Assembly (NCBI RefSeq): GCF_947302755.1
Contig: NZ_CAMYWM010000001.1
Span: forward strand, 625-64,624
Direction of reading: 5' to 3'
Source of the DNA: an uncultured Anaerovibrio sp.
GTDB taxonomy: Bacteria; Bacillota; Negativicutes; Selenomonadales; Selenomonadaceae
DNA length: 64,000 bases
Each line of letters begins with the position of its first letter. Position 1 is the first letter of the stretch. Below, piece by piece: positions 13,974 through 42,583 of the stretch. Under the pieces are notes generated by a model, which saw only the letters and a program-made list of their open reading frames with translations, did no database searches and had not been told where the DNA came from. The position numbers and the translations under genes are program-made.

Positions 13974-14007
13974 TAAAAGGATATTATTGGAAATAAAGGA
14001 GATTTAA

Positions 14008-17248: not shown

Positions 17249-17283
17249 TATCTATCAAGATTATTGTATTAGGATGATATAAC

Positions 17284-18565: not shown

Positions 18566-18581
18566 AAAAAACGAAGGAGAT

Positions 18582-21410: not shown

Positions 21411-21412
21411 GG

Positions 21413-23568: not shown

Positions 23569-23588
23569 ACGAAGAAAGGTTGAGTATT

Positions 23589-24584: not shown

Positions 24585-25882
24585 CACAAAATGAGATTTA
24601 TGGCAAAAAGGCACATGAGCTGATTCCAGCCGGTGCACATACTTATAGCAGAACAGATGAGGTTTTTCCAGAAAATGCTCCGCGTGTATTCAGTCATACA
24701 AAGGGAGTTTATGCCTGGGATGTTGATGGAAATAAATATTTGGATTTTGCCATGGCGTGCCGCTCAGTAACTATTGGCTATGATTATGAGCGGATTTCAA
24801 ATGCTGCCATTGCCCAGATTCATAACGGAAATACAGCAAGTAAGGCTTCCAAGGTTGAGGTTGATGCTGCCCAGACTATGGTTGATCTTATTCCGTGGAT
24901 TGATATGGTTAAGTTTGCTAAAAATGGTTCCACGGTAACTTCGGCTGCCACTAAGCTTGCCAGGGCATATACTGGCAGAAAATATATCGTACGGTGCAAG
25001 GAGCATTCTTTTTTCTCCTACGATGACTGGTTTATTGGTGATACTGTCATGGATGGCGGTATTCCAAAGGATATTAAGGATTTAACACTGCAGTTCAATT
25101 ACAATGATATAGCATCTGTTAAGAGTGTATTTGAAAAGTATAAGGGCCAGATTGCCTGCCTTATTATGGAGCCGGTTGATGACCAGGAGCCAACAAATAA
25201 TTTCCTGCAGGAAGTTGGCAAACTTTGTAAGGAATATGGTGTAGTGTATATTTTGGATGAAATGATTACCGGATTCCGTTGGGATTTACAAGGTGCTTGC
25301 AAATATTATGGTGTAGAACCAGATTTGGTGACCTACGGCAAGGGAATGGCCAATGGCTTCTCTGTAGCAGCTCTTGGTGGAAAGCGAGAGATTATGGACT
25401 TGGGTGGACTTACACCTGGCAAGGAAAGAGTGTTCCTGATCTCGACCACCCATGGTGCAGAGATGAGCAGCCTGGGCGCATTTATTGAAACTGTAAAAGT
25501 ATACAAAGAATTAAATGTTACAGATCATATTTGGGCAATGGGTAAAAAGCTTTGTTCCGGGCTTCGTGATTTAGCCAAAGAGTATTCTTTGGAAGATTAT
25601 TTTTATATCACTGGGGCTGAATGCTCACCTAATATGGTTATTTGCGGTAATGACAAAAAGCCATCCTTTGAGCATAGAACAGTATTTTGCCAGGAAATGC
25701 TAAAGGCTGGAATTTTGATGCCGTATATTGCCATTGCATATGAACACAATGACAAGGAGATAGATATGGCCTTGGAAGCTGCCCGGAAAGCTATGAAGGT
25801 GTTGTCTGATTCGTTAAACGGCAATGTTAATGACTTTATTATTGGCAATGTTATTAAACCTGTTTTCAGAAAATATAACTGA
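24581..25882 (+). CDS. Class-III (GSA-aminomutase-like) PLP aminotransferase
   Basis: Motifs ILDEMITGFRW and VTYGKGMANGFSVAALGGKREIM, parallel to the hemL block at the start of the window. Confidence 0.8.
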   Translation: MTQNEIYGKKAHELIPAGAHTYSRTDEVFPENAPRVFSHTKGVYAWDVDGNKYLDFAMACRSVTIGYDYERISNAAIAQIHNGNTASKASKVEVDAAQTMVDLIPWIDMVKFAKNGSTVTSAATKLARAYTGRKYIVRCKEHSFFSYDDWFIGDTVMDGGIPKDIKDLTLQFNYNDIASVKSVFEKYKGQIACLIMEPVDDQEPTNNFLQEVGKLCKEYGVVYILDEMITGFRWDLQGACKYYGVEPDLVTYGKGMANGFSVAALGGKREIMDLGGLTPGKERVFLISTTHGAEMSSLGAFIETVKVYKELNVTDHIWAMGKKLCSGLRDLAKEYSLEDYFYITGAECSPNMVICGNDKKPSFEHRTVFCQEMLKAGILMPYIAIAYEHNDKEIDMALEAARKAMKVLSDSLNGNVNDFIIGNVIKPVFRKYN

Positions 25883-25992
25883 TTTTTATTGCGCATTAAG
25901 GCGGCACCCTAATTGTAGATATGGTATATTATTATCTGCTATTAGCGAGGTATAGAAAGGTGGAGAATGTATCCGCCGCAGATACATAATTG

Positions 25993-26709
25993 ATGTATAA
26001 GGGAAAAAAGATTTTGGCGGTTGTGACGGCTCGGGGGGGCTCCAAAGGACTTCCTGGCAAAAATATACGGCCAATGCACGGTAAACCACTGATACAGTGG
26101 ACTATTAAATCCGCTCATAATAGTAAGTATTTGGATAAGTTGTTCATTTCCACAGATAGCCTGGAAATTGCTGATGTTTGTGAAATGGCGGGTGCACCGG
26201 TTCCGGAACTGAGACCGGAGGAACTGGCCCAGGACAAGTCATCATCGATGGATGTGCTGGTATATACACTGGAATTGCTGGAAAAACAAGGAGAAAAATA
26301 TGACTATTTGATTCTGCTGGAACCGACCTCACCTCTTCGTAAAGAACAGGATATAGACAAGATGATCGAGCTGGCGGTAGATAATCCTGAGGCTGATGGG
26401 GTTATTTCTGTGGGCCGGGTCCACTTGGAGCATCCGTCTATTGTGAAAAAAATAGACGAAAATGGGTTTATTTGTCCGTATTTTGAGCATGTACCAACCT
26501 TTTATCAAAGACAGGAAGAAGATGCGGCATATTTCCCATATGGGGTAGGTTATCTGGTTCGGGTGGACAGGTTTAAAGAAACTCATGCTGTCTACATGGA
26601 AAAAATGTTGCCATATTATATCGAAAGATGGCAGAACTATGAGATAGACGATATCTATGATTTTGAGTGTATTGAAAAAATAATGGAGCTGGAGGAACAG
26701 TATAAATGA
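25993..26709 (+). CDS. CMP-nonulosonic acid synthetase (NeuA/LegF family cytidylyltransferase)
   Basis: Motif ILAVVTARGGSKGLPGKNIRPMHGKPLI. About 239 aa. Confidence 0.85.
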   Translation: MYKGKKILAVVTARGGSKGLPGKNIRPMHGKPLIQWTIKSAHNSKYLDKLFISTDSLEIADVCEMAGAPVPELRPEELAQDKSSSMDVLVYTLELLEKQGEKYDYLILLEPTSPLRKEQDIDKMIELAVDNPEADGVISVGRVHLEHPSIVKKIDENGFICPYFEHVPTFYQRQEEDAAYFPYGVGYLVRVDRFKETHAVYMEKMLPYYIERWQNYEIDDIYDFECIEKIMELEEQYK

Positions 26710-27687
26710 GTTGTTATTATGTTAAAGGCCTGGGCTCAATGGGTAAGCGTCGTGTGCGTTGCCTTATGGCACTGGGCGTAAAGCCAGAGAATATCTGGGG
26801 AAATGATATAAGACAGGATCGGTGTGATGAAGCCAAGGAAAAGTATGGTATCAATATAGTGGATGATGAATCAGAGCTGGATTTTGACAAGATTGATGCT
26901 GTTATTGTATCCTTGCCACCGGATAAGCATAAAATTGGTGTTGATATAGCTGTTAAATACCATAAGCCTGTTTTCGTGGAAGCCAGTGTGGTTCTTGAGG
27001 AAAAACGATAGCAATGGCATTTTTGTTGCGCCTTCCTGCACATTTGTTTTCCATCCTATGGTTAAGGAAATAAAGAAGATCGTTGAAACTGGCAAATTGG
27101 GCAAGATGTGCAATTTCTCATACCATAGTGGCCAGTATTTACCTGATTGGCACCCATGGGAAAGTGTAAATGATTTTTATGTAGGCAATCGGTTGACTGG
27201 TGGGGCTAGAGAAATAGTTCCTTATGAATTAACCTGGCTGACAGATGTTTTTGGGTTCCCAAAAGAAATTAAGGGATATTTCCGTAAGACAGGCGATATT
27301 GGCTGTGATATAGAGGACAGCTATGCAAGCACTATCGACTATGGTGATTCCATAGGTACCCTGATTGTCGATGTAATGAGCCGTTATCCAGCCAGAAACC
27401 TTATTATCAATTTCCAGAATGGCCAGATTCAGTGGAAATGGGATGAGGAGCGTCTGACTGTATATAATGCAGCGGATGGAACTACTACATATATAAAACA
27501 GGAAAAGCAGCCGCATGAAGAAGGCTATGCTGATATGATAGGCGAGCAGATGTATATCGATGAAATAGCGGCTTTCCTCGCCGGTACAAAAGATGCGAAA
27601 GCTTATCCTAGCACGGTAGATAAGGATATACAGGTCCTCAGGCTTTTGAATTCAATTGAGGATTCAGATGGAGGCTTTGACAGATAA
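26706..27687 (+). pseudogene. Gfo/Idh/MocA-like oxidoreductase split by a +1 frame change at an A5 run (27001-27005)
   Basis: The 101-aa ORF (26706-27011) matches the N-terminus of the 23589 paralog (KGLGSMGKRR). The 233-aa ORF (26986-27687) matches its C-terminal two thirds (YHSGQYLPDWHPWES). Removing one A would join them as ..VVLEENDSNGIF.. Confidence 0.75.
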
Positions 27688-27689
27688 AA

Positions 27690-28448
27690 ATGAAAGTTGC
27701 TCTTGCGCAATTCGATATAATTTGGGAGGATAAGGAATCTAATATTGCCAACGCTGAATCTCTTATTGCTGCTGCTGCAAACGATGGCTCAGACATTATA
27801 TTTTTTCCTGAAATGAGCTTTACTGGGTTTTCCATGAATACGCGTGTTACAGGGGAGAAGAACAGCTACACTGTTGACAGGATAAGCAATATTGCGAAAC
27901 AAAATGATATAGCTGTTGGTTTTGGTTGGGTGAGATGGCATGACAATAAATGTGAGAATGTTTATACTCTGTTAGATTCTTCAGGTAAAATAGTATCAGA
28001 ATATGTTAAGATGCATCCTTTTTCCTATTCCGGGGAAGATAAGTATTTTGCCGGCGGAGAGAAAGTAATGGTTGCTGATTTTAAGGGGATACCCTTCTCG
28101 ACATTCATTTGTTATGATTTGAGATTCCCTGAAATATTCCGGGCAGTTGCAAAGGATGTGCATATGATAATCGTGCCTGCATGTTGGCCTTCCAAACGTG
28201 CTGAACATTGGAAAACCTTGCTTAGGGCACGGGCAATTGAAAATCAGGTGTATATTCTGGGAATAAATTGTCAGGGAAATATCGGTGGGCTGTATTACTC
28301 CGGTGACAGTTGCGTTATTACCCCTAATGGGGATATAGCCGTATCAATGTCGAATGAGTGTGGATTATTAACTTATAACTTGATGGATGATGTTGAAGAG
28401 TATAGAAAGGGATTTCCGGTTCTCAAGGATATGAAGCCAATCCCTTAA
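27690..28448 (+). CDS. Carbon-nitrogen hydrolase (nitrilase superfamily)
   Basis: Glu-Lys-Cys triad context: FFPEMSFTGF, YVKMHPF, ICYDLRFPE. Confidence 0.8.
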   Translation: MKVALAQFDIIWEDKESNIANAESLIAAAANDGSDIIFFPEMSFTGFSMNTRVTGEKNSYTVDRISNIAKQNDIAVGFGWVRWHDNKCENVYTLLDSSGKIVSEYVKMHPFSYSGEDKYFAGGEKVMVADFKGIPFSTFICYDLRFPEIFRAVAKDVHMIIVPACWPSKRAEHWKTLLRARAIENQVYILGINCQGNIGGLYYSGDSCVITPNGDIAVSMSNECGLLTYNLMDDVEEYRKGFPVLKDMKPIP

Positions 28449-28538
28449 AAAAGGGAAAAGCGGATGTTTCAAATAATTTCTAATGTGATATTTGCAGGAG
28501 AGAATGAAGGCATAGAAGGGATTAGGTGAATTTGTCAA

Positions 28539-29786
28539 ATGGATATCAATGATAATAGGGCAAGAATATTATTTGTCTGCTCTACAAAATTATTATTATT
28601 TAATGCTTTGCATGTTCGTATGCATATGTTCCCAAATGCCAAAGCAGATATAATATTTGATTTTTCGCGTCCGGAAACAGTTGCCTGCGCTGAGCGAATC
28701 AGTCAAACAAAATTGTTTGATAATGTTGCATTTAGATCGCCTCCCTATGTCGATTTTAAGGAATATTTCAGTTTAGTTAGAAATAATCAGCCTGCACCAT
28801 CACTCTTTACTGCCATCAAAAATACTGTCAATAAATATGGTAAAACAGGCCATAGAAATGCTGATAGCAGAGAACAGTATCTGGAGCAACAAATACATGG
28901 GTATGAAAAACTGGATATTAGCCGGTATACACATATATTTGGGTATGGTAATACCGATACTATAAGGAACATAGTTTCGCTAGCCAAAGAAAAAAATAAA
29001 ACCTGTAAAATGTGTGTGTTGGAAGAGGGAATAGGTTCATATTTCAGAGAATATATTTGCAACGATATAAAGCCTGACAGTATTTTCCTTTACAGTCCCA
29101 ATATGGTTTTGTATGAATATGATGAAAGAATAACTAAAATTCCGCCAATAGATAAAAATGACAAGGAATTTATTGATTGTGTAAACCTTGTTTTTAATCA
29201 CAGAGATAAAGAGAAGGTAGAAAATAAAATTATCTTTTTTGATGACCATGCTTCTGACATGCCGGGGTATTTGAAAATAAGTAAATTGTTATCAAAAACC
29301 CTGCTTCGCAATTCATATAAAAAACATGTGAGAGAAATGCGCTTTCTTCAGTTGCAGAGAGAAGCTTTTGAATTACTTTGCAAATACCGTAATAACAGGG
29401 AGGTAATTGTAAAACTTCATCCTACTACTAAACGCAATACTATCGAAGAGGAATATTTAAACAGACCCGGAGTTTCGGTACTGGAGGCAGCCTTTGCACC
29501 GTGGGAAGTGGTTTGTTTAAATAACGATGTACATAATAACATTATTGTAACTATGATGTCGGCGGCAGTTAAAGGAAATAGTATTTTCACGGGATACACG
29601 GACAATAACGTATATATTGTTTTGGTTGATCTTGTGTCAGATATCTATGACAATGAGAAGGGCAGTGCATTACTCAAAAAATGGAGTGAGCAGGAAAATA
29701 TACATGTTATTTTCCCGCAAGATATTGGTGAATATGAAGAATATTTAAAGTCCAATAATTCCAAGATGACAGATAACTGGAGATAA
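28539..29786 (+). CDS. Putative nonulosonic-acid (sialyl-type) transferase, paralog 2
   Basis: E-E-G at 29022-29030 (CVLEEGIGSY) and H-P at 29418-29423 (VKLHPTTKR). Paralogous to 14008-15207. Confidence 0.5.
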   Translation: MDINDNRARILFVCSTKLLLFNALHVRMHMFPNAKADIIFDFSRPETVACAERISQTKLFDNVAFRSPPYVDFKEYFSLVRNNQPAPSLFTAIKNTVNKYGKTGHRNADSREQYLEQQIHGYEKLDISRYTHIFGYGNTDTIRNIVSLAKEKNKTCKMCVLEEGIGSYFREYICNDIKPDSIFLYSPNMVLYEYDERITKIPPIDKNDKEFIDCVNLVFNHRDKEKVENKIIFFDDHASDMPGYLKISKLLSKTLLRNSYKKHVREMRFLQLQREAFELLCKYRNNREVIVKLHPTTKRNTIEEEYLNRPGVSVLEAAFAPWEVVCLNNDVHNNIIVTMMSAAVKGNSIFTGYTDNNVYIVLVDLVSDIYDNEKGSALLKKWSEQENIHVIFPQDIGEYEEYLKSNNSKMTDNWR

Positions 29787-29787
29787 T

Positions 29788-31212
29788 ATGAATTTTAATT
29801 CTTTGGAATATGCTATATTTTTGCCAATAGTATTTTGCTTGTATTGGCTTATGCCTCATCGTTTTCGATGGGCATTTTTATTGTTGGCGAGCTACTATTT
29901 CTATATGAGCTGGAATCCGCAATATATTGTGTTGATATTGGGGACTACAGCAATTTCATTTTTTGCGGCATTGTTGATAGAAAAATGTGACACAGTCCGG
30001 GCAAAGAAGATGGTTTTGGCGGGAGCTGTGTTCGTTTGTCTGGGTGTACTGTTTTGTTTTAAATATTTTAATTTCATGTCAGCTTCTTTGGTTGAGCTGT
30101 GTTCCCTTTTGGCCATAAATCTTCATCCCATAACTCTAAATGTGCTGTTGCCAGTTGGAATATCCTTCTACACATTTCAGACCATGGGATATGTTATAGA
30201 TGTTTACCGGGGGAATGTGAAGGCAGAGAGACATTTTGGCGAGTATGCGGCATTTATATCCTTCTTTCCCCAGTTGGTAGCTGGTCCTATTGAGCGGACA
30301 GCCAATCTTCTGCCTCAAATAAAAACAGTCAAAAAATTTGATTATGATGAAGCTGCCTATGGCCTTCGGCTCATGGCTTGGGGGTTCTTCAAAAAAATAG
30401 TTATAGCTGATAATGCTGCTATTGTAGTAGATAGCGTTTATTCATCTTTGGATAGATGCACGGGATTTGATCTGATACTTGCAGTGCTGTTTTTTACGAT
30501 GCAGATATATTGTGATTTTTCCGGGTACTCGGATATTGCTATTGGTACTGCCAGATTGTTGGGCATAAAGCTTATGACAAATTTCAAAAGCCCGTATTTT
30601 TCCGGCAGTTTAAAAGAATTTTGGAGCAGATGGCATATATCCCTTTCCACCTGGTTTAGAGATTATTTGTATATTCCTTTGGGGGGCAACAGGTGCTCCA
30701 AATTCAGGCACAACATGAATATCATGATAACCTTTCTTATAAGTGGCCTGTGGCATGGGGCAAATTGGACATTTGTACTATGGGGAGGAATTCATGGATT
30801 CATTCAGGTTGTTGAAAATGTTCTTGGTCTGAATAAAATTACGAAATCAAAATTGCAGCATATTATTTCGGTTGTTATAATTTTTTTAATTTGCAATATA
30901 GCCTGGGTATTCTTTCGTTCTAAATCAATTACAGATGCTTTTTATATTCTTGGCAATATTATTTCTGCCAACGGTGGTATTGATTGGTATATACGAAGCG
31001 GTATAGAGATAGACGAGAGTACCATTTATCACATATTGATACCTGTGGTGGCGATGATGGTATATGATTTTATATCCTTGAAACGGGATGTGATAAAATG
31101 GGTTGGTTCACAAAAAATGCTGGTACGTTGGTGCCTGTATTTTGTAATAATATTTTGGACCATACTTATGCTGCCTCTGGAAAACTCCGGCTTTATATAT
31201 TTCCAATTTTAA
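29788..31212 (+). CDS. MBOAT-family membrane O-acyltransferase (AlgI/DltB-like)
   Basis: Multi-TM protein with WHISLSTWFRDYLYIPLGGNR and LISGLWHGANW (conserved His). Confidence 0.85.
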   Translation: MNFNSLEYAIFLPIVFCLYWLMPHRFRWAFLLLASYYFYMSWNPQYIVLILGTTAISFFAALLIEKCDTVRAKKMVLAGAVFVCLGVLFCFKYFNFMSASLVELCSLLAINLHPITLNVLLPVGISFYTFQTMGYVIDVYRGNVKAERHFGEYAAFISFFPQLVAGPIERTANLLPQIKTVKKFDYDEAAYGLRLMAWGFFKKIVIADNAAIVVDSVYSSLDRCTGFDLILAVLFFTMQIYCDFSGYSDIAIGTARLLGIKLMTNFKSPYFSGSLKEFWSRWHISLSTWFRDYLYIPLGGNRCSKFRHNMNIMITFLISGLWHGANWTFVLWGGIHGFIQVVENVLGLNKITKSKLQHIISVVIIFLICNIAWVFFRSKSITDAFYILGNIISANGGIDWYIRSGIEIDESTIYHILIPVVAMMVYDFISLKRDVIKWVGSQKMLVRWCLYFVIIFWTILMLPLENSGFIYFQF

Positions 31213-31224
31213 TGGGGTATTATT

Positions 31225-32301
31225 GTGAGAACAATATTAATAAAAATGATAATACTGGCATTGACAGTATATAGCGTGGTTATATCAGTTAATTATTTTG
31301 TTGACCCTGCCAATTTATATCATGAGGGCACAGTTACCAAATTGGTGGATTGTCTCAATGATGGCAAAAATGTTAAAATTCCCGCAAATATTGATGAGGG
31401 GGTATTTCAGGAAAAAAGAATTGCAACTATGACCTGGAATCCAGAGACAGTAATAATTGGCTCAAGCCATGTTATGTATATGCCCTTTGATGATGGCAGT
31501 ATGGTATACAATGCAGGTATGTCCGGAGCATATTTAGGAGATTATTATGCTTTAACCGGACTGCTGCAATATTATGATAAAATGCCCAAGAAAATAATAA
31601 TAGGCGTTGATCCCTGGACCTTTATGCGCGGCAGTCTCGATGGGAAACATCCTTCATTGCATAGGTATGCGGAATACATGAAAAAAAACATTGATGGCTC
31701 CCAGGATACATACTATGGAGGAAATTATATTGATGATAAGTTAAAGGAACTGATTTCATTATCATATTTTCAGTCTTCCATTGCATATGCCAGAAAAAAT
31801 CTTTTTAAGGCAGAAGATGATGTAGAGACTGTTTCTGATGATCAGATTGGAGATGATGTCAAGATTATCGTGGATGGAAGGCGTGTTCCATCAGTTAAAA
31901 ATTTTCTTACCCAGAAAGAAATTGATGAGGAAATTTTAAAGCTGTTGAATAAAGGTACTATGTATCAAATGGGAACAGGCTTTAAAGAGGTTCAGCATGA
32001 TAATATTGCAGATTTTGAAAAATTGTTGCAATATTTACAGGCCAATGGGGTGGAGGTAAGCATTTATTTACCAGTATGGCATCCGAAGATTTACAGTTTT
32101 TTCTGTGAAAGTGAAGCATTTTCCGGAGTGAAAAAAATTGAGGACACCATACGCAAAATTGGTTATGGGTACCAGATTCCCGTTCATGGTGGATATGATC
32201 CAAGGGATTGTGGTATTACAGAAAACGACTTTATGGATTATCTACACCTGAAGCCGGAGAAGATGAAGGAAAACTATGAACTGATATTGGACAGTAAGTA
32301 G
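31225..32301 (+). CDS. Membrane-anchored extracytoplasmic partner of the MBOAT (DltD/AlgX-like role inferred)
   Basis: Single N-terminal TM segment (ILIKMIILALTVYSVVISV), then YFVDPANLYHEG and VIIGSSHVMYM, which is reminiscent of the DltD GSSE region. GTG start. Assigned mainly from position. Confidence 0.4.
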   Translation: MRTILIKMIILALTVYSVVISVNYFVDPANLYHEGTVTKLVDCLNDGKNVKIPANIDEGVFQEKRIATMTWNPETVIIGSSHVMYMPFDDGSMVYNAGMSGAYLGDYYALTGLLQYYDKMPKKIIIGVDPWTFMRGSLDGKHPSLHRYAEYMKKNIDGSQDTYYGGNYIDDKLKELISLSYFQSSIAYARKNLFKAEDDVETVSDDQIGDDVKIIVDGRRVPSVKNFLTQKEIDEEILKLLNKGTMYQMGTGFKEVQHDNIADFEKLLQYLQANGVEVSIYLPVWHPKIYSFFCESEAFSGVKKIEDTIRKIGYGYQIPVHGGYDPRDCGITENDFMDYLHLKPEKMKENYELILDSK

Positions 32302-32338
32302 TTTTTGGGCCACGAAGACAGCTGTTTGCTTTTTACTG

Positions 32339-32712
32339 AATAGTTACAAAATTGGCTTTATTTTTGTGGTGGGAAAGTTGAGTTATTATCAAATGGCCAT
32401 TAAGTATATCACTGATAGGGTTGGCGATATACAATTATTTGTTTTTTCCAATGATATTCCTTGGGCGAGGAAAATATAAAAACAGCTCAGGAAATCCATT
32501 TTGTGGACAACAACACGGAAGAAAAGGGCTATGAGGATATGCGGTTAATGAGCCTTTGCCGGCATCACATTATTGCCAACAGCTCCTTTAGCTGGTGGGG
32601 TGCCTGGCTGGGAACGGCTGGGGATAAGATTGTGGCAGCCCCTAAAAAGTGGTTGGCTAATGAACAATCTGGCCATGAGGATGTTGTGCCCAGTGGATGG
32701 ATTAAAATGTAA
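32339..32712 (+). pseudogene. Remnant of a GT11 alpha-1,2-fucosyltransferase (5'-truncated and frameshifted)
   Basis: C-terminal GT11 signature EDMRLMSLCRHHIIANSSFSWWGAWLG..KIVAAPKKW in the 32461 frame. The preceding part (YYQMAIKYITDRVGDIQLFVFSNDIPWAR) is in another frame that stops at 32477-32479. The N-terminal roughly 150 aa are absent. Confidence 0.65.
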
Positions 32713-32903
32713 CTGGAATATGTCCAAATCATAGTATAAATTCAAAAGACTATTTTGTGTAGAATATATCAAACAACGTAGAATAACAATTATTTTTCCT
32801 CTACGTCTGCTAGACAAGCGTGATACAATGGAATAAAATAGATTAGCTCAATATAGCTTTTAAGCCTACATTAACATAGAAAATATAAGGAGTGTGCTGA
32901 GTA

Positions 32904-34322
32904 ATGTTTAAGAAGACTAAAATCGTTTGTACCATGGGACCTACAACTGATAAGCCGGGAATCATTGAAGAATTGATGAAAAACGGCATGAACTGTGCCC
33001 GTTTTAACTTTTCCCATGGTGACCACGCCGAGCAGTTAGGCCGTATCGAGCGGGTGCGTGAAGCAGCCCGTCATACGGATAAGATTATACCATTGTTGCT
33101 GGATACCAAGGGGCCGGAGATGCGTCTGGGGGCCTTTAAGGATGGCAAGGTGCAGCTCACCAAGGGCAATACCTTCCGTCTCACCCAGTCCGATGAGCCA
33201 GGTGATGAAACCGGGGCACCAATAAGCTACAAGAACCTCTATAAGGAAGTAAAGCCAGGAGATACCATTTTGCTGTCCGATGGATTGGTTGGCCTTAAGG
33301 TGAAGGAAATTCAGGGACAGGATATTGTGACGGAAATTCTCAACAACGGCCCAATGAGCACTCGCAAGCGGGTGGCTGTACCGGGAGTAGCCATTGGCCT
33401 TCCACCTATTTCTGAGCAGGACGAAAAGGACATTCTCTTCGGTATTGAGCATGATATGGATTTCGTAGCCGCCTCCTTTATTCAGCGGGCCAGTGACGTG
33501 GAGGCCATCAGAAAGCTGATCACGGACAACAACGGCCACATGGAGATTATCGCCAAGATTGAAAATCTGGAGGGCGTAAAGAATATTGATGCCATTATTG
33601 AGGCTGCCGATGGAATCATGGTAGCCCGTGGTGATCTGGGGGTAGAAATTCCGGCTGAGGATGTGCCGGTTATTCAGAAGGAGGTCATTGCCAAGTGCAA
33701 CAAGGCCGGTAAGCTGGTAATCGTGGCTACCCAGATGCTGGAGTCCATGACCAACAATCCGCGGCCAACCAGAGCTGAGGTATCTGATGTAGGTAATGCG
33801 GTATTTGATGGTACGGATGCTATCATGCTCAGCGGCGAAACTGCCAGCGGTGATTATCCGGTAGAGGCTGTTCAGACCATGAGCACCATTGCCAAGCGCA
33901 TCGAGTCATCTATTCATTATGAAAATCGGTTTGCAACTAAGGGCATGGAGCATAAAAAGAGCATTACCGACGCAGTAGCTCATTCCACGGTGCAGCTGGC
34001 CTATGAGCTGGATGCCACCGCCATTATCACCCCAACGGAAACCGGCTTTACGGCCCAGATGGTATCCAAATACCGTCCACAGGCCACCATTATCGCCTAT
34101 GCCTCCACCTCCAAGGTAGCCCGTCAGTTGAACCTGCGCTGGGGCATTCAGCTGGTAAATGGCCGCATTTGGGATGATGAACCGGATCGCACCGGAGCCT
34201 CCATTGCCGCCGCTCTCCGCGCCGGTCTGGTGGAGAAGGGGGATATTGCCGTGGTAACCTCCGGTATTAACATGAGCAGGTGGAACAACACCAACAAGAT
34301 TCAGATAAGAACCATTGACTAA
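32904..34322 (+). CDS. pyk: Pyruvate kinase
   Basis: Motifs KTKIVCTMGPT, NCARFNFSHG, LLDTKGPEMR, AKIENLEG, MVARGDLGVEIP, VATQMLESM, SGETASG. Confidence 0.95.
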   Translation: MFKKTKIVCTMGPTTDKPGIIEELMKNGMNCARFNFSHGDHAEQLGRIERVREAARHTDKIIPLLLDTKGPEMRLGAFKDGKVQLTKGNTFRLTQSDEPGDETGAPISYKNLYKEVKPGDTILLSDGLVGLKVKEIQGQDIVTEILNNGPMSTRKRVAVPGVAIGLPPISEQDEKDILFGIEHDMDFVAASFIQRASDVEAIRKLITDNNGHMEIIAKIENLEGVKNIDAIIEAADGIMVARGDLGVEIPAEDVPVIQKEVIAKCNKAGKLVIVATQMLESMTNNPRPTRAEVSDVGNAVFDGTDAIMLSGETASGDYPVEAVQTMSTIAKRIESSIHYENRFATKGMEHKKSITDAVAHSTVQLAYELDATAIITPTETGFTAQMVSKYRPQATIIAYASTSKVARQLNLRWGIQLVNGRIWDDEPDRTGASIAAALRAGLVEKGDIAVVTSGINMSRWNNTNKIQIRTID

Positions 34323-36061: not shown

Positions 36062-38422
36062 ATGAAGAGAAAATTACAATATAAAAAAATAGATAAAAAA
36101 ATAAAGCAGGTAAAAAATAAAATAACCAATAGGGAGCCGGAGGCGGAGGAGCTGGTTACCGGTGTGCTGTCCCTGTCCAGCCGGGGCTTTGGCTTTGTTA
36201 CCCCGGAGGGGAAGCAGAAAAATGAGGAGGATATCTTCATTGGGAAAAGCGGCCTTCATACTGCCATGAACGGTGACACCGTGCAGGTGCGCCTGTTTCC
36301 CCAATATGCTGTGACCCCAGGCCGTTCCAAGGAGGGGGAGGTATATAAGGTTATCGAGCGGGCCAACAGTAAGATTGTAGGTATTTTTGCGGCCAGCCGG
36401 AAATTTGGCTTTGTATCCCCGGATGATACCCGGATTAGGGAGGATATTTATATTCCTGAGGGTCAGTTTATGGGGGCCACCACTGGTGACAAGGTGGTGG
36501 TGGAGGTTACCCAGTGGCCGGAGAATGGCCGCAAGGCCGAGGGTCATGTGGTGGAGGTATTGGGCAAGGCCGATGCCCCTGGGGTGGATATTCTATCCAT
36601 TATGCGCCATTACGAGCTGTCCGAGACCTTCCCGGAGGCGGTACAGCAGGCGGCCGGCAATGTGGAGCAGTCCATCAATGCGGAGGACCATATCGGTAAA
36701 AATGGCCGGGAGGACCGCCGCCATTTGAAAATTGTCACCATTGACGGGGAGGATGCCAAGGACCTGGATGATGGTGTCTATGTGGAAAAGCATGAGGATG
36801 GCAGCTTCTTTCTGGGAGTCTACATTGCCGATGTCAGCTGGTATGTCCGGGAAAATCAGCCCCTGGATATTGAGGCCCAGGCCCGGGGCACCAGTGTGTA
36901 CCTGGTGGATCGGGTGGTACCAATGCTGCCCAAGGAGCTGTCCAATGGGATATGCAGCTTAAACGCCGGGGTGGATCGCCTGTCCATGGCCTGTGAAATG
37001 GAAATAAGTCCGGAGGGCCGGGTGACCAAATACAAAATCCTGCCGGTGGTGGTGCATGTATACCGCCGCCTGACCTACACACTGGTCAACAAGATTTTGG
37101 TGGAGCGGGACAAGGATTTTTGTAAGGACAATGAGGATATATTACCCCTTCTCTACAATCTGGAGGAGGTCCGTAACGCCATGTACAGCTATCGTCACAG
37201 ACGGGGAGCCATAAACTTCGAGGTGCCGGAAATAAAGGTGAAGCTGGATGAAAAGGGCCGGGCTGTGGGGCTGAAGAAGCGGGTCAGCAATTTGGGCGAG
37301 TCCATTGTGGAGCAGTGTATGCTGGCGGCCAATGAAACGGTGGCGGAGCACATGTGCCGCCGGAAGCAGCCATTTATGTACCGTATCCATGAGCAGCCGG
37401 AGCCAGGCAAAATAGAGGCACTAAATCAGCTGATGATGACTTTTGGACTGCGTTTGCGGACGAGTCAGGATGGAAGTATTCGGCCCAAGGATTTGCAGAT
37501 TGCCTTGGAAAAAATCGCCGGCAAGCCGGAGGAGAAAATATTGAGCACCGTCTCCCTGCGCTCTATGCAGCAGGCCCGTTATGCGGCGGAAAATGAGGGC
37601 CATTTTGGCCTGGCGGCAGAATATTATACCCATTTCACCTCGCCAATCCGTCGTTACCCGGATCTGATAGTTCACCGTTTGCTGCGGGAAAGCTTCCCTA
37701 CCGGGTCTATTCCCAAGGAGCGGCGGGAGCAGCTGATAAACAAGCTGCCGGAAATGGCGGATCACGCCTCCAAACGGGAGCGGATAGCCGTAGCGGCGGA
37801 GCGTGATACCACGGATCTGAAGAAGGTAGAATACATGGAGCAGTTCGTGGGGGATGCCTTTGAGGGGGTTATCAGCAGCGTCACCGGCTTTGGCTTTTTC
37901 GTGGAGCTGGATAATGGCGTAGAAGGGCTGGTGCACATGACCAGCTTACAGGATGATTACTACGATTACGTGGAATCCCGTTATGCGCTGGTGGGCAATC
38001 ACCATCACCGCAGCTATCAGCTGGGGGATACGGTGGAGGTTATTCTGGTGCGGGCCAGCGTGGAGGAAAAGGCCCTGGACTTCGTGGTAAAGGATAACTG
38101 CGATTCCAGAGCCCTTAATATGGCCAATTCCGCTGACCGGCGGGCTGGGGAAGAAGCCGGAAAGGCAACCGAGGCAGCAGGCCGGAGTGGCAGAGGGGCC
38201 CACAAGGGCGACAAAGGGCCCGCTAAGTCGGATAAAAAAGCCGCCAAGAAAAAATTCGACCGCAAAAAGCCGGCTAACGCTAAAAAAGCCAAGGCCAAGG
38301 AGAACAAGGCCAAGACGGCTGTCACCGCCTCCAAACCGAAAAAGAAAACCAAAGTGTCCAAGCGCAACAAGCACGACCACAAGGCCGTAAAGCGCAAAAA
38401 GGATATTATTGTCGAAATATAA
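36062..38422 (+). CDS. rnr: Ribonuclease R
   Basis: N-terminal OB/cold-shock region, RNB domain (TIDGEDAKDLDDGV, GTSVYLVDRVVPMLP, HFGLA..YTHFTSPIRRYPDLIVHR), S1 domain (FEGVISSVTGFGFFVELD) and a Lys-rich basic tail. Confidence 0.9.
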   Translation: MKRKLQYKKIDKKIKQVKNKITNREPEAEELVTGVLSLSSRGFGFVTPEGKQKNEEDIFIGKSGLHTAMNGDTVQVRLFPQYAVTPGRSKEGEVYKVIERANSKIVGIFAASRKFGFVSPDDTRIREDIYIPEGQFMGATTGDKVVVEVTQWPENGRKAEGHVVEVLGKADAPGVDILSIMRHYELSETFPEAVQQAAGNVEQSINAEDHIGKNGREDRRHLKIVTIDGEDAKDLDDGVYVEKHEDGSFFLGVYIADVSWYVRENQPLDIEAQARGTSVYLVDRVVPMLPKELSNGICSLNAGVDRLSMACEMEISPEGRVTKYKILPVVVHVYRRLTYTLVNKILVERDKDFCKDNEDILPLLYNLEEVRNAMYSYRHRRGAINFEVPEIKVKLDEKGRAVGLKKRVSNLGESIVEQCMLAANETVAEHMCRRKQPFMYRIHEQPEPGKIEALNQLMMTFGLRLRTSQDGSIRPKDLQIALEKIAGKPEEKILSTVSLRSMQQARYAAENEGHFGLAAEYYTHFTSPIRRYPDLIVHRLLRESFPTGSIPKERREQLINKLPEMADHASKRERIAVAAERDTTDLKKVEYMEQFVGDAFEGVISSVTGFGFFVELDNGVEGLVHMTSLQDDYYDYVESRYALVGNHHHRSYQLGDTVEVILVRASVEEKALDFVVKDNCDSRALNMANSADRRAGEEAGKATEAAGRSGRGAHKGDKGPAKSDKKAAKKKFDRKKPANAKKAKAKENKAKTAVTASKPKKKTKVSKRNKHDHKAVKRKKDIIVEI

Positions 38423-39180: not shown

Positions 39181-39205
39181 AACAATTTTTAAGGAGGGTT
39201 TTTTG

Positions 39206-40183
39206 ATGTCAAAAAATATAGCAGTACTAACCAGCGGTAACGACTGCCCAGGCATGAACGCCTGTATCCGGGCAGTGGTACGCACCGCAGTTCATCAGGG
39301 CGCACGGATTTGGGGCGTTCATAACGGCTACAGAGGCCTGATTAACGACGAAATCGAAGAGCTGAACACCCGCAGCGTCGGTGACATGATACAGCGGGGC
39401 GGCACCTTTTTGGGCATTGCCCGCAGCGGTGAATTCTTTGAAGAGGAGGGCCGCCGTCAGGGGTATGAAAACCTGATAAAGCACGGTATCGACGGCCTCA
39501 TTGTCATCGGTGGCAGCGGCAGCATCAAGGGAGCCGCTACCATGAGCAAGGAATGTGGCATGCCGGTTATCGGCATTCCTGGCACCATTGAAAACGATGT
39601 ATGGGGCACCGACTACACTATTGGCTCCGATACAGCAGCCAATACAGTGGTGGATGCCATCAACAAGCTCCGGGATACCGCCTGTGCCCATCGCCGTATC
39701 GTCCTTATCGAGGTAATGGGCAAAACCTCCGGCTGGCTGGCCATGACGGCTGGCATTGCCGGCGGTGCCGAGTATGTATTGGTGCCTGAAACCAAATCCA
39801 ATATCGACCAGATTTGTGCCGAAATCCGGGAGGACTACGCCAAGGGTAAAAAATACAGCCTGCTGGTAGTAGCCGATGGTGCCCTGAAGGGCATGGGGGT
39901 CACCACCACGGAGCTGGGCAAGCAGATTCAGGAAAAAACGGAAATCGATACCCGGGTGACGGTGCTGGGCCACATCCAGCGGGGCGGCTCCCCAACAGTG
40001 GAGGACCGCATCAACGCCAGCATGCTGGGTGAAAAGGCCGTCCTGGCCATGCTGGAGGGCAAGCAGGACGTGGTAGTAGGCTTCGATACCGGCGTAGTAG
40101 TAGAAATTCCAATAGACGAAGCCACCAACAACCGCAAGACCCTGGATACAGAGTTCATAAGACTCTCCAAGGTACTGGCTTAA
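39206..40183 (+). CDS. pfkA: PfkA-family 6-phosphofructokinase homolog with non-canonical active-site residues
   Basis: Full-length colinearity with PfkA (NIAVLTSG, PGMNA, RGGTFLG, GIPGTI-ND, GTDYTIG, VLGHIQRGGSP). However GGD is GND, GGDGS is GGSGS, TIDND is TIEND and MGR is MGK. Confidence 0.8.
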   Translation: MSKNIAVLTSGNDCPGMNACIRAVVRTAVHQGARIWGVHNGYRGLINDEIEELNTRSVGDMIQRGGTFLGIARSGEFFEEEGRRQGYENLIKHGIDGLIVIGGSGSIKGAATMSKECGMPVIGIPGTIENDVWGTDYTIGSDTAANTVVDAINKLRDTACAHRRIVLIEVMGKTSGWLAMTAGIAGGAEYVLVPETKSNIDQICAEIREDYAKGKKYSLLVVADGALKGMGVTTTELGKQIQEKTEIDTRVTVLGHIQRGGSPTVEDRINASMLGEKAVLAMLEGKQDVVVGFDTGVVVEIPIDEATNNRKTLDTEFIRLSKVLA

Positions 40184-40219
40184 TAGTTCGCAAAGTGATA
40201 TTTTTCATATAAGAATTAT

Positions 40220-40277
40220 CAGATAAAGACTTGTCGCATTACATTTGGTTTGTCATGCGACAAGTTTATCTGTTTTT
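40220..40277 (+). terminator. Rho-independent terminator after pfkA
   Basis: CAGATAAAGACTTGTCGCAT ... ATGCGACAAGTTTATCTG followed by TTTTT. Confidence 0.8.
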
Positions 40278-40322
40278 AGTTTTGAATAAAATACCATAGG
40301 GCATTTTTTTTACCAACTAAGT

Positions 40323-40351
40323 TTGACTACAGTCATTTATGATAGTATAAT
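40323..40351 (+). promoter_or_regulatory. Near-consensus sigma-70-type promoter for the kinase/HIRAN module
   Basis: TTGACT (40323-40328), 17-nt spacer, TATAAT (40346-40351). Confidence 0.6.
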
Positions 40352-40392
40352 CACAGTGAATTATAGCTATATCTTTGTGGAGGAAAATTGAA

Positions 40393-41304
40393 TTGAAAGT
40401 TGTGACAATTAAAGACTTTAGTTCATGGTCTCTTTATGATGGATTTGCTGAGGGTAGTGGACGTAGCGAGAAGGTTTGGTTGCAATCCTCTTCAGGCCGA
40501 ATAGGCTTATTTAAATATCCCAAAACTGATGAAAACAATATAAGCAATACTACAGAGCATGTATCTGAACATTTGGCATATTGTTTAGGACTTTGTTTGG
40601 GAATTCCTATTGCTGAAGTAGATATCGGTGTATATAAAAATCGTATTGGGTGTATGAGCTATTTAATTAATGGCAAACATGAGTCAATTGTTGAGGCTGC
40701 TCTGTTCATTAGTGGGTTTCATTCAGATTATGACTTGAATGAAATGATGGAAAAAGAGTCGGGGCGGTATTATTGCTTAGAACATGTATTTGAAGTGACA
40801 GCATTACCTCATATGAAATATCAAGCAATTCAAATGATGGTATTTGACTTTATAATTGGCAATTCGGATAGACATCAAAATAATTGGGCAATGATAATTA
40901 AACATGACAAGGCAAATAAACCAGTAGATTGGAAATTTTGTCCACTGTATGATAATGGATCATCGCTGTGTTGTTATGTTGATGATTCGGCTGTGGATGA
41001 ATATCTTGGCAGAGATAGGAATCGTTTTGAATCGCTAGTTAATTCGAAGTCAAGGTCTATGATACGAATTGACGGTAATACCAAGAAGAGGCCAACGCAT
41101 ACGGAGATGGTAAGGCATTTATTGATGAATTATTCTGACACTGGGAAAATTGTGGATGATTTTTTAGGGAAATTATCAAATGAAAGAATTAATTTGTTAT
41201 TAGATTCGTATGAAAATGTGTTGTCTATTCGTAAAATTGAGTTAATAAAGAAGTTTTTGATTAGAAAGCTAGAAATATTATCTCACTTGAAAGATGGTGG
41301 TTAA
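40393..41304 (+). CDS. Short HipA-family Ser/Thr kinase (core kinase only, HipT-like architecture)
   Basis: Gly-rich EGSGRSEKVW, catalytic IGNSDRHQNNW (DRHQNN at 40867-40884) and CPLYDNGSS. It lacks the N-terminal HipA subdomain. The TTG at 40393 lies 8 nt after GGAGGA; the longest ORF starts at 40375. Confidence 0.7.
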   Translation: MKVVTIKDFSSWSLYDGFAEGSGRSEKVWLQSSSGRIGLFKYPKTDENNISNTTEHVSEHLAYCLGLCLGIPIAEVDIGVYKNRIGCMSYLINGKHESIVEAALFISGFHSDYDLNEMMEKESGRYYCLEHVFEVTALPHMKYQAIQMMVFDFIIGNSDRHQNNWAMIIKHDKANKPVDWKFCPLYDNGSSLCCYVDDSAVDEYLGRDRNRFESLVNSKSRSMIRIDGNTKKRPTHTEMVRHLLMNYSDTGKIVDDFLGKLSNERINLLLDSYENVLSIRKIELIKKFLIRKLEILSHLKDGG

Positions 41305-41306
41305 TA

Positions 41307-41990
41307 ATGGAAGCAAAACAATATTTGTATTTGGTATGGAAAGATCCTATTAGTAGAAGAAATTACACGGTTGGTAAGTTGTCAAAAGGAAGCGAGTATA
41401 CATTTGAGTATTGTGGTGAGTACCTGCAAGCCAAAGACGTAGGTTGGGATTATATTAAGTCATTTCCTAACGATGAAACATATCATAGTAAAGTGCTTTT
41501 TCCAGCTTTTTCTAGTCGTCTACCCGATAAAAAAAGAAAAGATATTGTTTCTGTTTTAACTAAATATGGTTTATCTGAATATAATGGTTTTGATTTGTTG
41601 AGAAAAAGTGGTGGAAGGCTACCAATCGATAATTATGAATTCGTTGAACCAATTGTTTTTTGTGATAATGTTGCAATTAAGGAATTTTATGTTGGTGGGA
41701 TTAGGCATGTTAGTAAGTGTTTTGGGAAAGACTGTCGATCTTTACCCAAATTAAGTGGAGGTACGCAGTTAAATTTAGTACCGGAACCAAATAACGAGTA
41801 TGATACTAATGCTGTACTAGTTAAAACTATAGACGGAAACAGTGTTGGATATGTACCTAGGTACTACAGTAAAGATGTTACATCCTTTTTGAAAACAGAT
41901 GGAAAGTATGAATGTGTAGTATTAGAAAAAAATAACGAAAAGAATTGTCAAGACTGTGTGAAAGTTAAATTGGTAATGTCAAAAGTATAA
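41307..41990 (+). CDS. HipS-like N-terminal domain fused to a HIRAN domain (putative cognate partner/antitoxin)
   Basis: N-terminal half: LVWKDPISRRNYTVGKL, FPAFSSRLPDKKRKD and LLRKSGGRLPIDNYEF resemble the HipA N-subdomain. C-terminal half: GIRH..GTQLNLVPEPNNEYDTNAVLV..GNSVGYVPRYYSKDV is a HIRAN-type pattern. A 2-nt gap separates it from the kinase. Confidence 0.6.
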   Translation: MEAKQYLYLVWKDPISRRNYTVGKLSKGSEYTFEYCGEYLQAKDVGWDYIKSFPNDETYHSKVLFPAFSSRLPDKKRKDIVSVLTKYGLSEYNGFDLLRKSGGRLPIDNYEFVEPIVFCDNVAIKEFYVGGIRHVSKCFGKDCRSLPKLSGGTQLNLVPEPNNEYDTNAVLVKTIDGNSVGYVPRYYSKDVTSFLKTDGKYECVVLEKNNEKNCQDCVKVKLVMSKV

Positions 41991-42066
41991 TGAGTATTAA
42001 AACTGTGTTTGAACTCTTATTGCAGCAAATTGTTTAATAGGGTGCTGACATATACAGAAGATGAAT

Positions 42067-42095
42067 TTGACAGACTATTTGTGTCTGTACATAAT
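42067..42095 (+). promoter_or_regulatory. Candidate promoter upstream of desulfoferrodoxin
   Basis: TTGACA (42067-42072), 17-nt spacer, CATAAT (42090-42095). Confidence 0.45.
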
Positions 42096-42214
42096 AAATA
42101 ATTTTACACCCACATTTTTCCTTTTATTTTTCAGACTCATATCATATAATTAACCCAGATATCCGTTTTGAGCGATTTTTTTAATATTGTGTGTATTGAT
42201 TGGAGTGGATCGAA

Positions 42215-42583
42215 ATGAGATTTTTCAAGTGTGATTTGTGCGGCAACATTACTACGGCCCTGACTGATGTAAAGGGGCCTTTGTCCTGCTGTGGTCAGGG
42301 GATGACCGAGCTTATCCCTGGCACCACTGATGCCGCTCAGGAGAAGCATGTACCGGCTGTTACGGTGGAGGGCAACAAGGTCGCCGTCAAGGTGGGCAGC
42401 GTGGAGCATCCAATGACGGACGCCCATTACATTCAGTGGATTGTCATTGAAACAGACAAGGGCTGCCAGATGAAGAAGCTGACTCCACAGGACAAGCCAG
42501 AGGCAGAGTTCCTGCTGCTGGAGGGAGAGAAGCTGGTGGCCACCTATGAGTACTGCAACCTCCATGGTTTGTGGAAGGCCTGA
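42215..42583 (+). CDS. dfx: Desulfoferrodoxin (2Fe superoxide reductase)
   Basis: N-terminal desulforedoxin-like CDLC..CCG cysteines. EKHVP motif. C-terminal C-N-L-H-G-L-W (Cys/His ligands of centre II). Confidence 0.85.
   Translation: MRFFKCDLCGNITTALTDVKGPLSCCGQGMTELIPGTTDAAQEKHVPAVTVEGNKVAVKVGSVEHPMTDAHYIQWIVIETDKGCQMKKLTPQDKPEAEFLLLEGEKLVATYEYCNLHGLWKA

Follow-up and report, generated by a model that had tools for sequence, protein, structure and literature searches.

A hipIN-type kinase and HipS-like/HIRAN cassette at the strain-variable pfkA-dfx junction of an uncultured Anaerovibrio

The closest described relative of the locus studied here is hipIN, which was defined by Gerdes, Baerentsen and Brodersen (mBio 2021; PMC8262856) as a bicistronic operon without HipB in which the kinase gene comes first. 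Its kinase, HipI, is a short clade-XI enzyme of 279 to 321 amino acids (aa) that falls into four HipI subclades, while in the monocistronic HipL of the same survey the kinase, HipS and HIRAN domains are fused. The authors proposed that the HIRAN domain recognizes the ends of invading phage DNA, leading to activation of the kinase and to an aborted infection. Here, we describe a two-gene cassette that lies between pfkA and dfx in a 64,000-nucleotide (nt) stretch of DNA from an uncultured Anaerovibrio sp. (contig NZ_CAMYWM010000001.1, positions 625 to 64,624 of the forward strand), hereafter called the window. At NCBI, proteins identical to its SmpB and its HIRAN protein are assigned to uncultured Anaerovibrio sp., as are the named members of the clusters to which its PfkA, RNase R and kinase belong. 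Judged by its sequence, this cassette is almost certainly hipIN, with a HipI kinase and the putative antitoxin HipN.

Gene pairs of this kind also feature in PADLOC as PDC-M03, PDCs being 145 predicted phage defence candidates embedded in BREX, DISARM or type I restriction-modification (RM) loci (10.1101/2024.01.29.577857). In addition, a 2025 paper in Nucleic Acids Research reported that about one-third of the deoxydinucleotide-specific DEDD nucleases in Gram-positive bacteria adjoin HipA-plus-HIRAN gene pairs. Our search of the literature for experimental work on hipIN, HipN, HipL, PDC-M03, or HIRAN in connection with a kinase or defence found none, the relevant publications being confined to the hipIN survey, the diDNase paper and surveys of the PADLOC kind. 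The module is, however, not a new prediction, having been predicted computationally in 2021 and included in PADLOC, and abortive infection through the sensing of DNA ends is a published hypothesis. The first-pass annotation of the window had pointed to a survey by Gerdes and co-workers of operons with a kinase and a HipS-HIRAN protein, and rightly so since PMC8262856 describes hipIN.

The window cassette is identical in architecture to published hipIN, including a Ser-containing Gly-rich loop near the N terminus of the kinase. Each defining feature that could be checked by sequence was found, i.e., a short kinase, a HipS-like plus HIRAN partner, and a bicistronic layout without HipB, and we saw no architectural difference, the host of the window cassette being a Negativicute (Anaerovibrio). 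The two adjacent, co-oriented genes also match the PDC-M03A and PDC-M03B models over nearly their full length (HipI 5.1e-103, profile positions 2-286 of 293; HipN 3.6e-85, profile positions 6-229 of 232). However, while PDCs were predicted from their position inside BREX, DISARM or type I RM systems, the window cassette is solitary between two housekeeping genes. HipL has the same three domains in the same order, and the same HIRAN and kinase folds as HipN and HipI. Homology to HipL, itself of clade XI, would indirectly support a clade-XI placement of the window kinase. HipL differs in being a single chain with about 28% identity to the window proteins, and in often having an Rv2179c-like 3'-5' exonuclease at its side. 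The window has no such exonuclease, nor does any DEDD or diDNase gene lie beside hipIN there.

Other systems are related in logic. HipBST of Escherichia coli O127:H6 and Legionella likewise splits the HipA fold into a core kinase and a separate protein resembling N-subdomain 1, which experiments have there identified as the antitoxin. HipS occupies the N-subdomain-1 position with its Trp65 wedged into the outward Gly-rich loop pocket, neutralizing HipT (PMC10627512). In contrast to HipBST, which includes a helix-turn-helix (HTH) gene for HipB, is ordered hipB-hipS-hipT and has a HipS without HIRAN, the window cassette has no HTH gene, a reversed order and a fused HIRAN domain. The two are alike in logic, yet the cassette does not qualify as a HipBST system. 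HipBA of E. coli K-12 shares the kinase superfamily and the catalytic motifs, and HipA structures match both the N-terminal half of HipN and the HipL kinase, but in HipA the single 440-aa kinase chain includes N-subdomain 1 in cis, the neutralizing partner is the HTH protein HipB, and there is no HIRAN. HipAD (DS-6 of DefensePredictor; PMC13092281), another HipA-family pair, has been validated in defence. Like the window cassette, it combines a HipA-like kinase with a partner other than HipB, and it gives kinase-dependent protection against phage, but its partner consists of DUF3037 and DUF1829 instead of HipS-HIRAN. "Bandua," a protective nuclease-plus-kinase pair of P4 hotspots (Nucleic Acids Research 2026, gkag898), might also be related.

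Domain composition of HipI and HipN

The genes, domains, motifs and predicted expression signals of the cassette are as follows (window coordinates).

40323-40351, plus strand: predicted sigma-70-type promoter, TTGACT-17-TATAAT, 11 of 12 consensus positions
40362-40371, no strand: perfect 10-bp palindrome TATAGCTATA between the -10 box and the ribosome-binding site (RBS) of hipI, occurring once in the window
40393-41304, plus strand: hipI, with a TTG start and GGAGG 9 nt 5' of the start
40453-40473, plus strand: Gly-rich loop GSGRSEK of HipI
40867-40884, plus strand: catalytic DRHQNN motif of HipI
40951-40953, plus strand: Mg-binding Asp187 of HipI
41307-41990, plus strand: hipN, beginning 2 nt past the hipI stop
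about 41364-41621, plus strand: HipS-like (HipA N-subdomain-1-like) domain of HipN, aa 20-105, Couple_hipA 2.1e-5
about 41715-41972, plus strand: HIRAN domain (PF08797) of HipN, aa 137-222, Pfam 6.6e-14

HipI is a protein of 303 aa (WP_297963047.1, named "HipA domain-containing protein" at NCBI), which matches Pfam HipA_C (PF07804; E 6.2e-8, 33.0 bits for a cut-off of 30.5) and PHROG 8728 (2.3e-52), whereas it has no significant match in NCBIfam. Although the HipA_C score is marginal, the PDC-M03A match and the homology to CtkA described below strengthen the assignment. A word-indexed protein search with HipI returned 901 clusters, nearly all of about 300 aa and with HipA_C. In an alignment of 31 homologues with 48-59% identity, the Gly-rich loop GSGRxEK (residues 21-27), Lys41, DRHQxN (159-164) and YDNGSS (186-191) are invariant, while Ser25, which is the variable position of the loop, is at least 90% conserved. 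HipI lacks the N-subdomain 1 of HipA, as seen from the Gly-rich loop starting at residue 21 and from Couple_hipA being found in the second gene. When the HipI-family profile was compared to solved structures, the closest was CtkA from Helicobacter pylori (JHP0940; 3akj), with an E value of 1.7e-13 over profile positions 33-292 of 305, while the Legionella HipT matched the profile with an E value of only 0.006. CtkA (PDB 3AKJ, 3AKK and 3AKL) is also matched in fold by HipL, with a template modelling (TM) score of 0.73-0.76. CtkA is a stand-alone kinase, reported to be a secreted proinflammatory factor, for which no HipS-HIRAN partner is known. That CtkA, rather than HipA or HipT, is the closest solved relative of the HipI and HipL kinases is new here, CtkA not being mentioned in the hipIN survey (PMC8262856). 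Since its motifs are invariant in the 31 homologues and it is homologous to the active kinase CtkA, HipI is very probably a catalytically competent core HipA-type Ser/Thr kinase.

HipN is a 227-aa protein with two domains. Its Couple_hipA match scores 25.4 bits (Pfam cut-off 22.5) and its HIRAN match 51.9 bits (cut-off 24.7), and it also matches PHROG 8026 (9.6e-53). An AlphaFold2 model built with 31 homologues has a predicted local distance difference test (pLDDT) value of 87.8 and a predicted TM score (pTM) of 0.80. Searched with Foldseek, the C-terminal half of this model finds the DNA-bound HIRAN domain of HLTF (E 6.5e-6) and lp_0118 (TM 0.78), while the N-terminal half finds HipA (E 2.5e-3, probability 0.99). 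The HipN sequence profile, when run against the sequences of solved structures, picked up HIRAN entries but neither HipS nor HipA at E values up to 0.1, so that the link of the N-terminal half to HipA comes from Pfam and Foldseek. The HIRAN fold is common to HipN, HLTF, Rad5 and the bacterial protein lp_0118 (PDB 3K2Y), with TM scores to the target of 0.61-0.79. However, in HLTF and Rad5 it is fused to a SNF2 helicase or RING, while in HipN it is fused to what would be a kinase-docking domain.

We then aligned the HLTF segment ...DPNNPYDKNAIKV...GHLKK... to the HipN family. The HLTF residues that bind the 3'-OH end are R71, N91, Y93, D94 (which contacts the 3'-OH), H110 and K113. In this alignment, they correspond to R133, N163, Y165, D166, Y182 and R185 of HipN, respectively. 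Among 31 sequences, D166 is kept in at least 90%, and R133, N163, Y182 and R185 without exception. Because these equivalent residues are conserved, the 3'-end pocket of the HipN HIRAN domain looks intact. A separate feature of this half of the protein is a set of five cysteines (C138, C143, C203, C214 and C217; window 41718-41960), which are invariant or at least 90% conserved in Clostridia-type HipN. They form the pattern C-x4-C ... C ... C-x2-C, missing in HLTF and in enterobacterial HipL, and may constitute a structural zinc site.

As for expression, the layout predicts that hipI and hipN are served by one promoter and are translationally coupled. The palindrome downstream of the -10 box is possibly an operator, or it may be due to chance, short palindromes not being rare in AT-rich DNA. 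The islet contains no HTH gene, even counting open reading frames (ORFs) as short as 20 aa, nor any further ORF of at least 20 aa with a plausible role. Much of what the first-pass annotation had read in the two genes is borne out by these findings: the near-consensus promoter; a short HipA-type kinase without N-subdomain 1, in which EGSGRSEKVW, IGNSDRHQNNW and CPLYDNGSS are all present; a second gene after a 2-nt gap with HipS-like and HIRAN halves, including the motifs quoted for them; and the lack of a HipB-type HTH gene. The profile hidden Markov model searches that it had suggested place HipA_C, Couple_hipA and HIRAN all above their cut-offs.

The pfkA-dfx junction and its four states

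The site occupied by the cassette is bordered by the following features of the window.

39203-40183, plus strand: pfkA (6-phosphofructokinase), left flank of the variable site, Pfam PFK 1.7e-106
40187-42029, plus strand: hipIN cassette proper, foreign AT-rich DNA, delimited by a drop in guanine-plus-cytosine (GC) content and by homology only to contig L001 among contigs with the same PfkA
40220-40272, plus strand: cassette-borne 18-bp hairpin followed by the T-rich GTTTTTAGTTTT, folding energy -31.5 kcal/mol, z -5.16
42029-42101, plus strand: relic of a gene from an alternative cassette, its last 23 codons and stop, identified by comparing the ORF with contig L002
42110-42583, plus strand: upstream region of dfx and the desulfoferrodoxin gene (ATG at 42215, 122 aa), conserved right flank

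Window 40187-42109 is an AT-rich stretch with sharp edges and a GC content of about 0.32, compared with 0.55 in the flanks. By segment, GC is 0.55-0.57 at 39200-40199, 0.29-0.37 at 40200-42199 and 0.54 in dfx, whose product matches Desulfoferrodox (9.6e-22) and Desulfoferrod_N (3.7e-8) in Pfam. Since the window holds other large low-GC stretches, low GC is not distinctive by itself. What is distinctive is that these breaks in composition coincide with insertion boundaries seen at the population level. An identical PfkA is encoded on nine other metagenomic contigs, and one more contig was reached via SmpB. The flanks of these contigs are 96-98% identical to the window. In every contig that extends beyond pfkA, homology ends at window 40186, three bases past the pfkA stop, and the alleles realign from about 42108-42110. 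Four states of the site are seen.

hipIN: window 40186-42110 and L001; 2 contigs
ABC-ATPase plus 190-aa gene: L002 (1294-3263), L003, L006 and L093; 4 contigs
Phd/YefM-like pair, minus strand: L004 (1566-2428) and L005; 2 contigs
empty, with a spacer of about 137 nt only: L007 (1564-1702) and L009 (1042-1179); 2 contigs

The 3' end of the islet has a different origin from the rest. Window 42030-42109 is common only to the ATPase allele, homology to L002 restarting at 42030 with 94.7% identity, and the relic ORF ends in ...KLFNRVLTYTEDEFDRLFVSVHNK where the 190-aa gene of L002 ends in ...LFNRVLTYTEEEFDRLFVSVHNK. The presence of this relic 3' of hipN suggests, as the simplest history, that hipIN replaced most of an ATPase cassette. 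A near-consensus TTGACA-17-CATAAT lies inside the relic (42067-42095).

The left edge has also changed hands. Right after the pfkA stop, non-hipIN alleles have a native pfkA terminator, consisting of GGAACTCAGATTTTTGAGTTCC with a T run behind it, which the hipIN allele lacks. There, the cassette-borne hairpin at 40220-40272 is predicted to serve as the terminator after pfkA. This hairpin is overlooked by a terminator scan with an 8-nt loop ceiling, because its loop is longer, but was confirmed by folding, none of 200 shuffled sequences folding equally well. These comparisons both support and amend what the first-pass annotation had said of the site. The AT-rich insert of roughly 1.9 kb between pfkA and dfx is there, and it is variably present between the two genes, as a suggested comparison of genomes now shows. 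Its extent needs correction, since only 40187-42029 is the cassette proper and the remainder up to 42109 is a relic of another cassette, and the hairpin taken for the terminator of pfkA turns out to be the cassette's own, which takes over from a native terminator missing here.

We found no integrase, transposase or recombinase ORF and no tRNA at the islet, no Rfam match anywhere in the window, and only short direct or inverted repeats at chance level flanking the islet. A site-specific mobile element, having neither recombinase nor tRNA nor meaningful flanking repeats, was dropped as an explanation, and on the same grounds we infer that cassettes are exchanged by homologous recombination via the conserved flanks. 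A four-state pfkA-dfx hotspot with a replacement relic is new here.

The other occupants of the site were inspected as well. The ATPase cassette (L002:1485-3334) consists of a 426-aa AAA_15/AAA_21 ABC-ATPase and an overlapping 190-aa gene. The ATPase matches PD-T4-4_A (1e-23), NsnB, AriA, PtuA and Old/GajA, its relationship to the first four being distant, while its 190-aa partner has no match in Pfam or PADLOC. The two may be an undescribed defence pair of an ATPase and an effector. In the pair on the minus strand of L004 (1623-2281), the Phd/YefM-like antitoxin matches PF02604 (7.7e-6, below the gathering score), and its 109-aa partner, in L004 and L005, has no family match. The second hipIN contig, L001, has a 40-nt deletion in hipN (L001:2821-2824; window 41906-41945), a frameshift that leaves HipN with 204 aa, and lacks a further 29 nt in the 5' region of dfx (L001:3109-3110; window about 42232-42260). 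The contig has a coverage of only about 2.8x and, as dfx carries a deletion too, both may reflect faulty assembly rather than real decay.

Farther out, two long low-GC (0.31-0.44), co-directional clusters for polysaccharide biosynthesis and export, at window 14000-33000 and 42700-64000, flank an RNase R-SmpB-PfkA-Dfx core block. Among the families that Pfam finds in these clusters are Bac_transf, Poly_export, Wzz, UDP-glucose dehydrogenase, pyruvyl transferase, a Polysacc_synt flippase and MBOAT. The C terminus of RNase R (window 38000-38420) is a long Lys/Ala-rich basic tail with an AT skew of up to 0.50, probably the usual basic C-terminal extension of this enzyme.

Relatives in other bacteria, prophages and plasmids

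We scanned one genome per species by pattern and tblastn, which gave 112 loci, and analyzed the best 80. These 80 are mostly from gut and rumen Clostridia (Lachnospiraceae, Oscillospiraceae and Acutalibacteraceae) and from Coriobacteriaceae; none is from Anaerovibrio. Identity to the closest relatives is at most 56% for HipN and 59% for HipI. Relatives in Clostridia and Coriobacteriaceae at no more than 56% and none in Anaerovibrio are in keeping with a cassette acquired horizontally from low-GC neighbours. An ORF for HipI lies directly upstream of hipN, abutting or overlapping it, in at least 70 of the 80 loci, and the exceptions are mostly contig ends. The family extends well beyond this sample, an exhaustive search with the HipN profile returning 3,990 clusters (at 50% identity) with E values up to 0.001, and 912 with E values up to 1e-10.

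Nine hipIN loci have an extra Phd/YefM-like gene of 70-95 aa that overlaps or abuts the start of hipI, and eight neighbours match PF02604. Their coordinates are as follows.

L015:884-1120
L017:8778-9065
L020:4045-4332
L022:3384-3662
L023:8861-9079
L028:8828-9091
L030:8865-9077
L033:8816-9073
L036:8863-9081

In one further locus an Xre HTH gene takes the position of the extra gene (L064:5067-5366), and Xre-type HTH genes rank among the most frequent neighbours. Judging from these gene layouts, there are tricistronic hipIN variants outside the published bicistronic scheme. The window cassette is the minimal form of hipIN. The upstream Phd/YefM-like or Xre gene in these variants parallels HipB in hipBST. 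The immediate neighbours as a whole (144 genes in 80 species) are heterogeneous, with a few Cas3, AriA/AbiLi and HEC-02. As the signal from known defence genes is weak among them, we do not claim enrichment in defence islands.

Relatives of hipN were also found by tblastn in 19 phage and 7 plasmid records. In Clostridioides difficile phage phiCDKH02, hipIN has the ImmA/XRE lysogeny module on one side and the integrase on the other, and in integrated Vibrio elements of the Vinavirales it adjoins the integrase. In the P2-like Escherichia phage 899 and Yersinia phage GMG73, an Rv2179c-like 3'-5' exonuclease of the DEDD type (PF16473, 6.8e-57) and HipL lie between gpA and the portal gene, i.e., in the gpA-portal (gpA-gpQ) hotspot (L091:2456-4660 and L102:5057-7261). 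The phage record annotates this HipL with 519 aa, RefSeq with 547 aa. The pair occurs in 61 of 5,426 complete E. coli genomes with at least 99% identity, and it echoes the linkage of diDNase, HipA and HIRAN published for Actinobacteria. The gpA-portal position is the old/tin anti-phage hotspot (Rousset et al. 2022). Such placements are typical of accessory cargo for anti-phage defence or exclusion.

Proposed mechanism and alternative explanations

A structural view of how the two proteins might interact is offered by HipL, a natural fusion that we used as a proxy for the HipI:HipN complex. HipL is colinear with HipI plus HipN (HipN 7-183 aligns to HipL 329-506), and both window proteins match one and the same 547-position family, PHROG 26212. 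Fusions also recur near the clade of the window, as proteins of 500-530 aa in which the HipN-like part is C-terminal (matches up to 2.6e-61). The HipL model (pLDDT 87.8 and pTM 0.89 over three domains) has a linker of about 13 residues that joins the last helix of the kinase to the first strand of the HipS-like domain. Because the regulator in HipL is covalently tethered and compactly packed, this model favours an allosteric switch inside a stable complex, rather than release of the kinase by dissociation or by differential decay of the regulator.

The explanation towards which we cautiously lean is that of a horizontally acquired hipIN cassette at a strain-variable hotspot, working as follows. 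HipI and HipN would be held in a stable complex in roughly equal amounts, with the HipS-like domain docked at the N-subdomain-1 site and keeping the Gly-rich loop of HipI inactive, as HipS does with HipT. Binding of free 3' DNA ends or short fragments by HIRAN would then throw an allosteric switch, with no need for dissociation, the triggering DNA coming from phage genomes, replication intermediates or degraded DNA. Once active, HipI would phosphorylate an essential host protein, which to judge from HipA and HipT would probably be one that acts in translation, and growth would stop, aborting the infection or the invading element. The parts of this scheme are not equally firm. By analogy with HipS and HipT and from its conserved synteny, the cassette probably encodes a kinase toxin with a regulator partner, a role against phage or mobile elements is reasonably likely, and a DNA 3' end as the trigger is put forward as a tentative idea. 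The context that speaks for a role in conflict consists of the PDC-M03 match, a site common to ATPase and toxin-antitoxin cassettes, and accessory loci of prophages. The abortive-infection switch imagined in the first-pass annotation thus gains from this context as far as defence is concerned, while its "release" of the kinase is at odds with the HipL fusions.

Several observations weigh against this explanation. PDC-M03 is a candidate only, found by guilt-by-embedding, and the neighbours of hipIN are mostly non-defence genes, including UvrB, transporters and housekeeping genes. The Pfam scores for the kinase and HipS-like domains barely exceed their thresholds. The N-subdomain 1 of HipA belongs to an active kinase, so that a HipS-like domain need not inhibit. 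The combination of a near-consensus promoter and no HipB-like regulator leaves unexplained how the cassette would be expressed safely, and the truncation of HipN in L001, if real, would mean that loss of the supposed antitoxin is tolerated.

Could the cassette instead be an ordinary type II-like toxin-antitoxin module for addiction or persistence, which senses no infection? HipN would then be a labile or titratable antitoxin, HIRAN would tether it or autoregulate the operon in HipB's stead, and loss of the cassette would be penalized. The two-gene layout and the homology to HipS resemble a toxin-antitoxin pair, a Phd/YefM-type pair occupies the same chromosomal site in other contigs, and relatives reside on plasmids and prophages, which often carry addiction modules; the palindrome between the -10 box and the RBS and the mostly non-defence neighbours point the same way. 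However, HIRAN binds DNA ends rather than specific operators, as established for HLTF, whose pocket is conserved here, and it is retained in relatives that have their own Phd/YefM-like or Xre regulator. Since it is kept where a dedicated upstream regulator exists, HIRAN is not simply an autoregulator. The covalent HipL is moreover incompatible with differential decay of an antitoxin, and the fused form sits in the old/tin hotspot of P2, among anti-phage cargo. We therefore regard simple addiction as fairly unlikely. In a different departure from the favoured scheme, HIRAN would sense very short DNA breakdown products with a 3'-OH, such as deoxydinucleotides and oligonucleotides, instead of phage ends as such. 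These products arise when a phage or a nuclease degrades DNA, and the HIRAN pocket reads the terminal nucleotides only. A linked DEDD nuclease would clear the signal and set the threshold, like ring nucleases in type III CRISPR and CBASS-like systems, and the two-gene form in the window would be a nuclease-less, more sensitive variant. Behind this idea is the genetic linkage to the Rv2179c-like DEDD exonuclease in P2 prophages of Enterobacteria and to the deoxydinucleotide-specific enzyme in Actinobacteria. We consider it unlikely.

A third possibility abandons growth arrest altogether. HipI and HipN could be a split but constitutively assembled HipA-like kinase, in which the HipS-like part is activating or neutral and HIRAN recruits the enzyme to DNA ends, where it would phosphorylate replication, repair or DNA-bound phage proteins as a signal. 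This would agree with N-subdomain 1 being integral to active HipA, with HipL being a single polypeptide of compact predicted structure, and with CtkA, the nearest solved relative, not being known to belong to a toxin-antitoxin pair. In eukaryotes, HIRAN domains bring enzymes to stalled forks (see the literature cited in PMC8262856), and UvrB accounts for 3 of the 144 neighbour genes. On the other hand, strain-variable, horizontally moved prophage cargo is atypical of housekeeping repair signalling, PDC-M03 was found by its embedding in defence systems, and all characterized Hip kinases inhibit growth, which makes a pure signalling role very unlikely in our judgement. That the cassette is just an inert passenger, a decaying remnant without function in its host, might be argued from its foreign GC content of 0.32 in a 0.55-GC host, from the frameshifting hipN deletion in the conspecific L001, and from the adjacent relic of an earlier cassette, which speaks for rapid turnover at the site. 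Nevertheless, both ORFs are intact and keep every family-invariant residue, and the promoter, the RBSs and the coupling geometry are intact too, while the deletions in L001 may be assembly errors. With invariant residues and expression signals all in place, an inert remnant is highly improbable.

Besides the hotspot and the CtkA relationship, the points that are new here are the positions in prophages and in the P2 hotspot, the Phd/YefM-like genes that make some loci tricistronic, the clade-specific cysteines of HIRAN and the allosteric argument. The hipIN and HipL families are large and are represented among gut, rumen, marine and clinical bacteria as well as their prophages. The locus described here is a compact version of 1.9 kb, with two genes and a promoter of its own, and the four natural states of its site make a useful test bed, the pfkA-dfx junction being a cassette-exchange hotspot in a rumen anaerobe. 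Should the breakdown-product reading be true, hipIN and HipL would be a new kind of immune kinase, triggered by products of DNA degradation. If the logic that we favour is true, they would represent an immune kinase of bacteria under the direct control of a sensor for nucleic-acid ends, homologous to the one in human HLTF and yeast Rad5, and the biology of HipA would be extended from persistence to defence.

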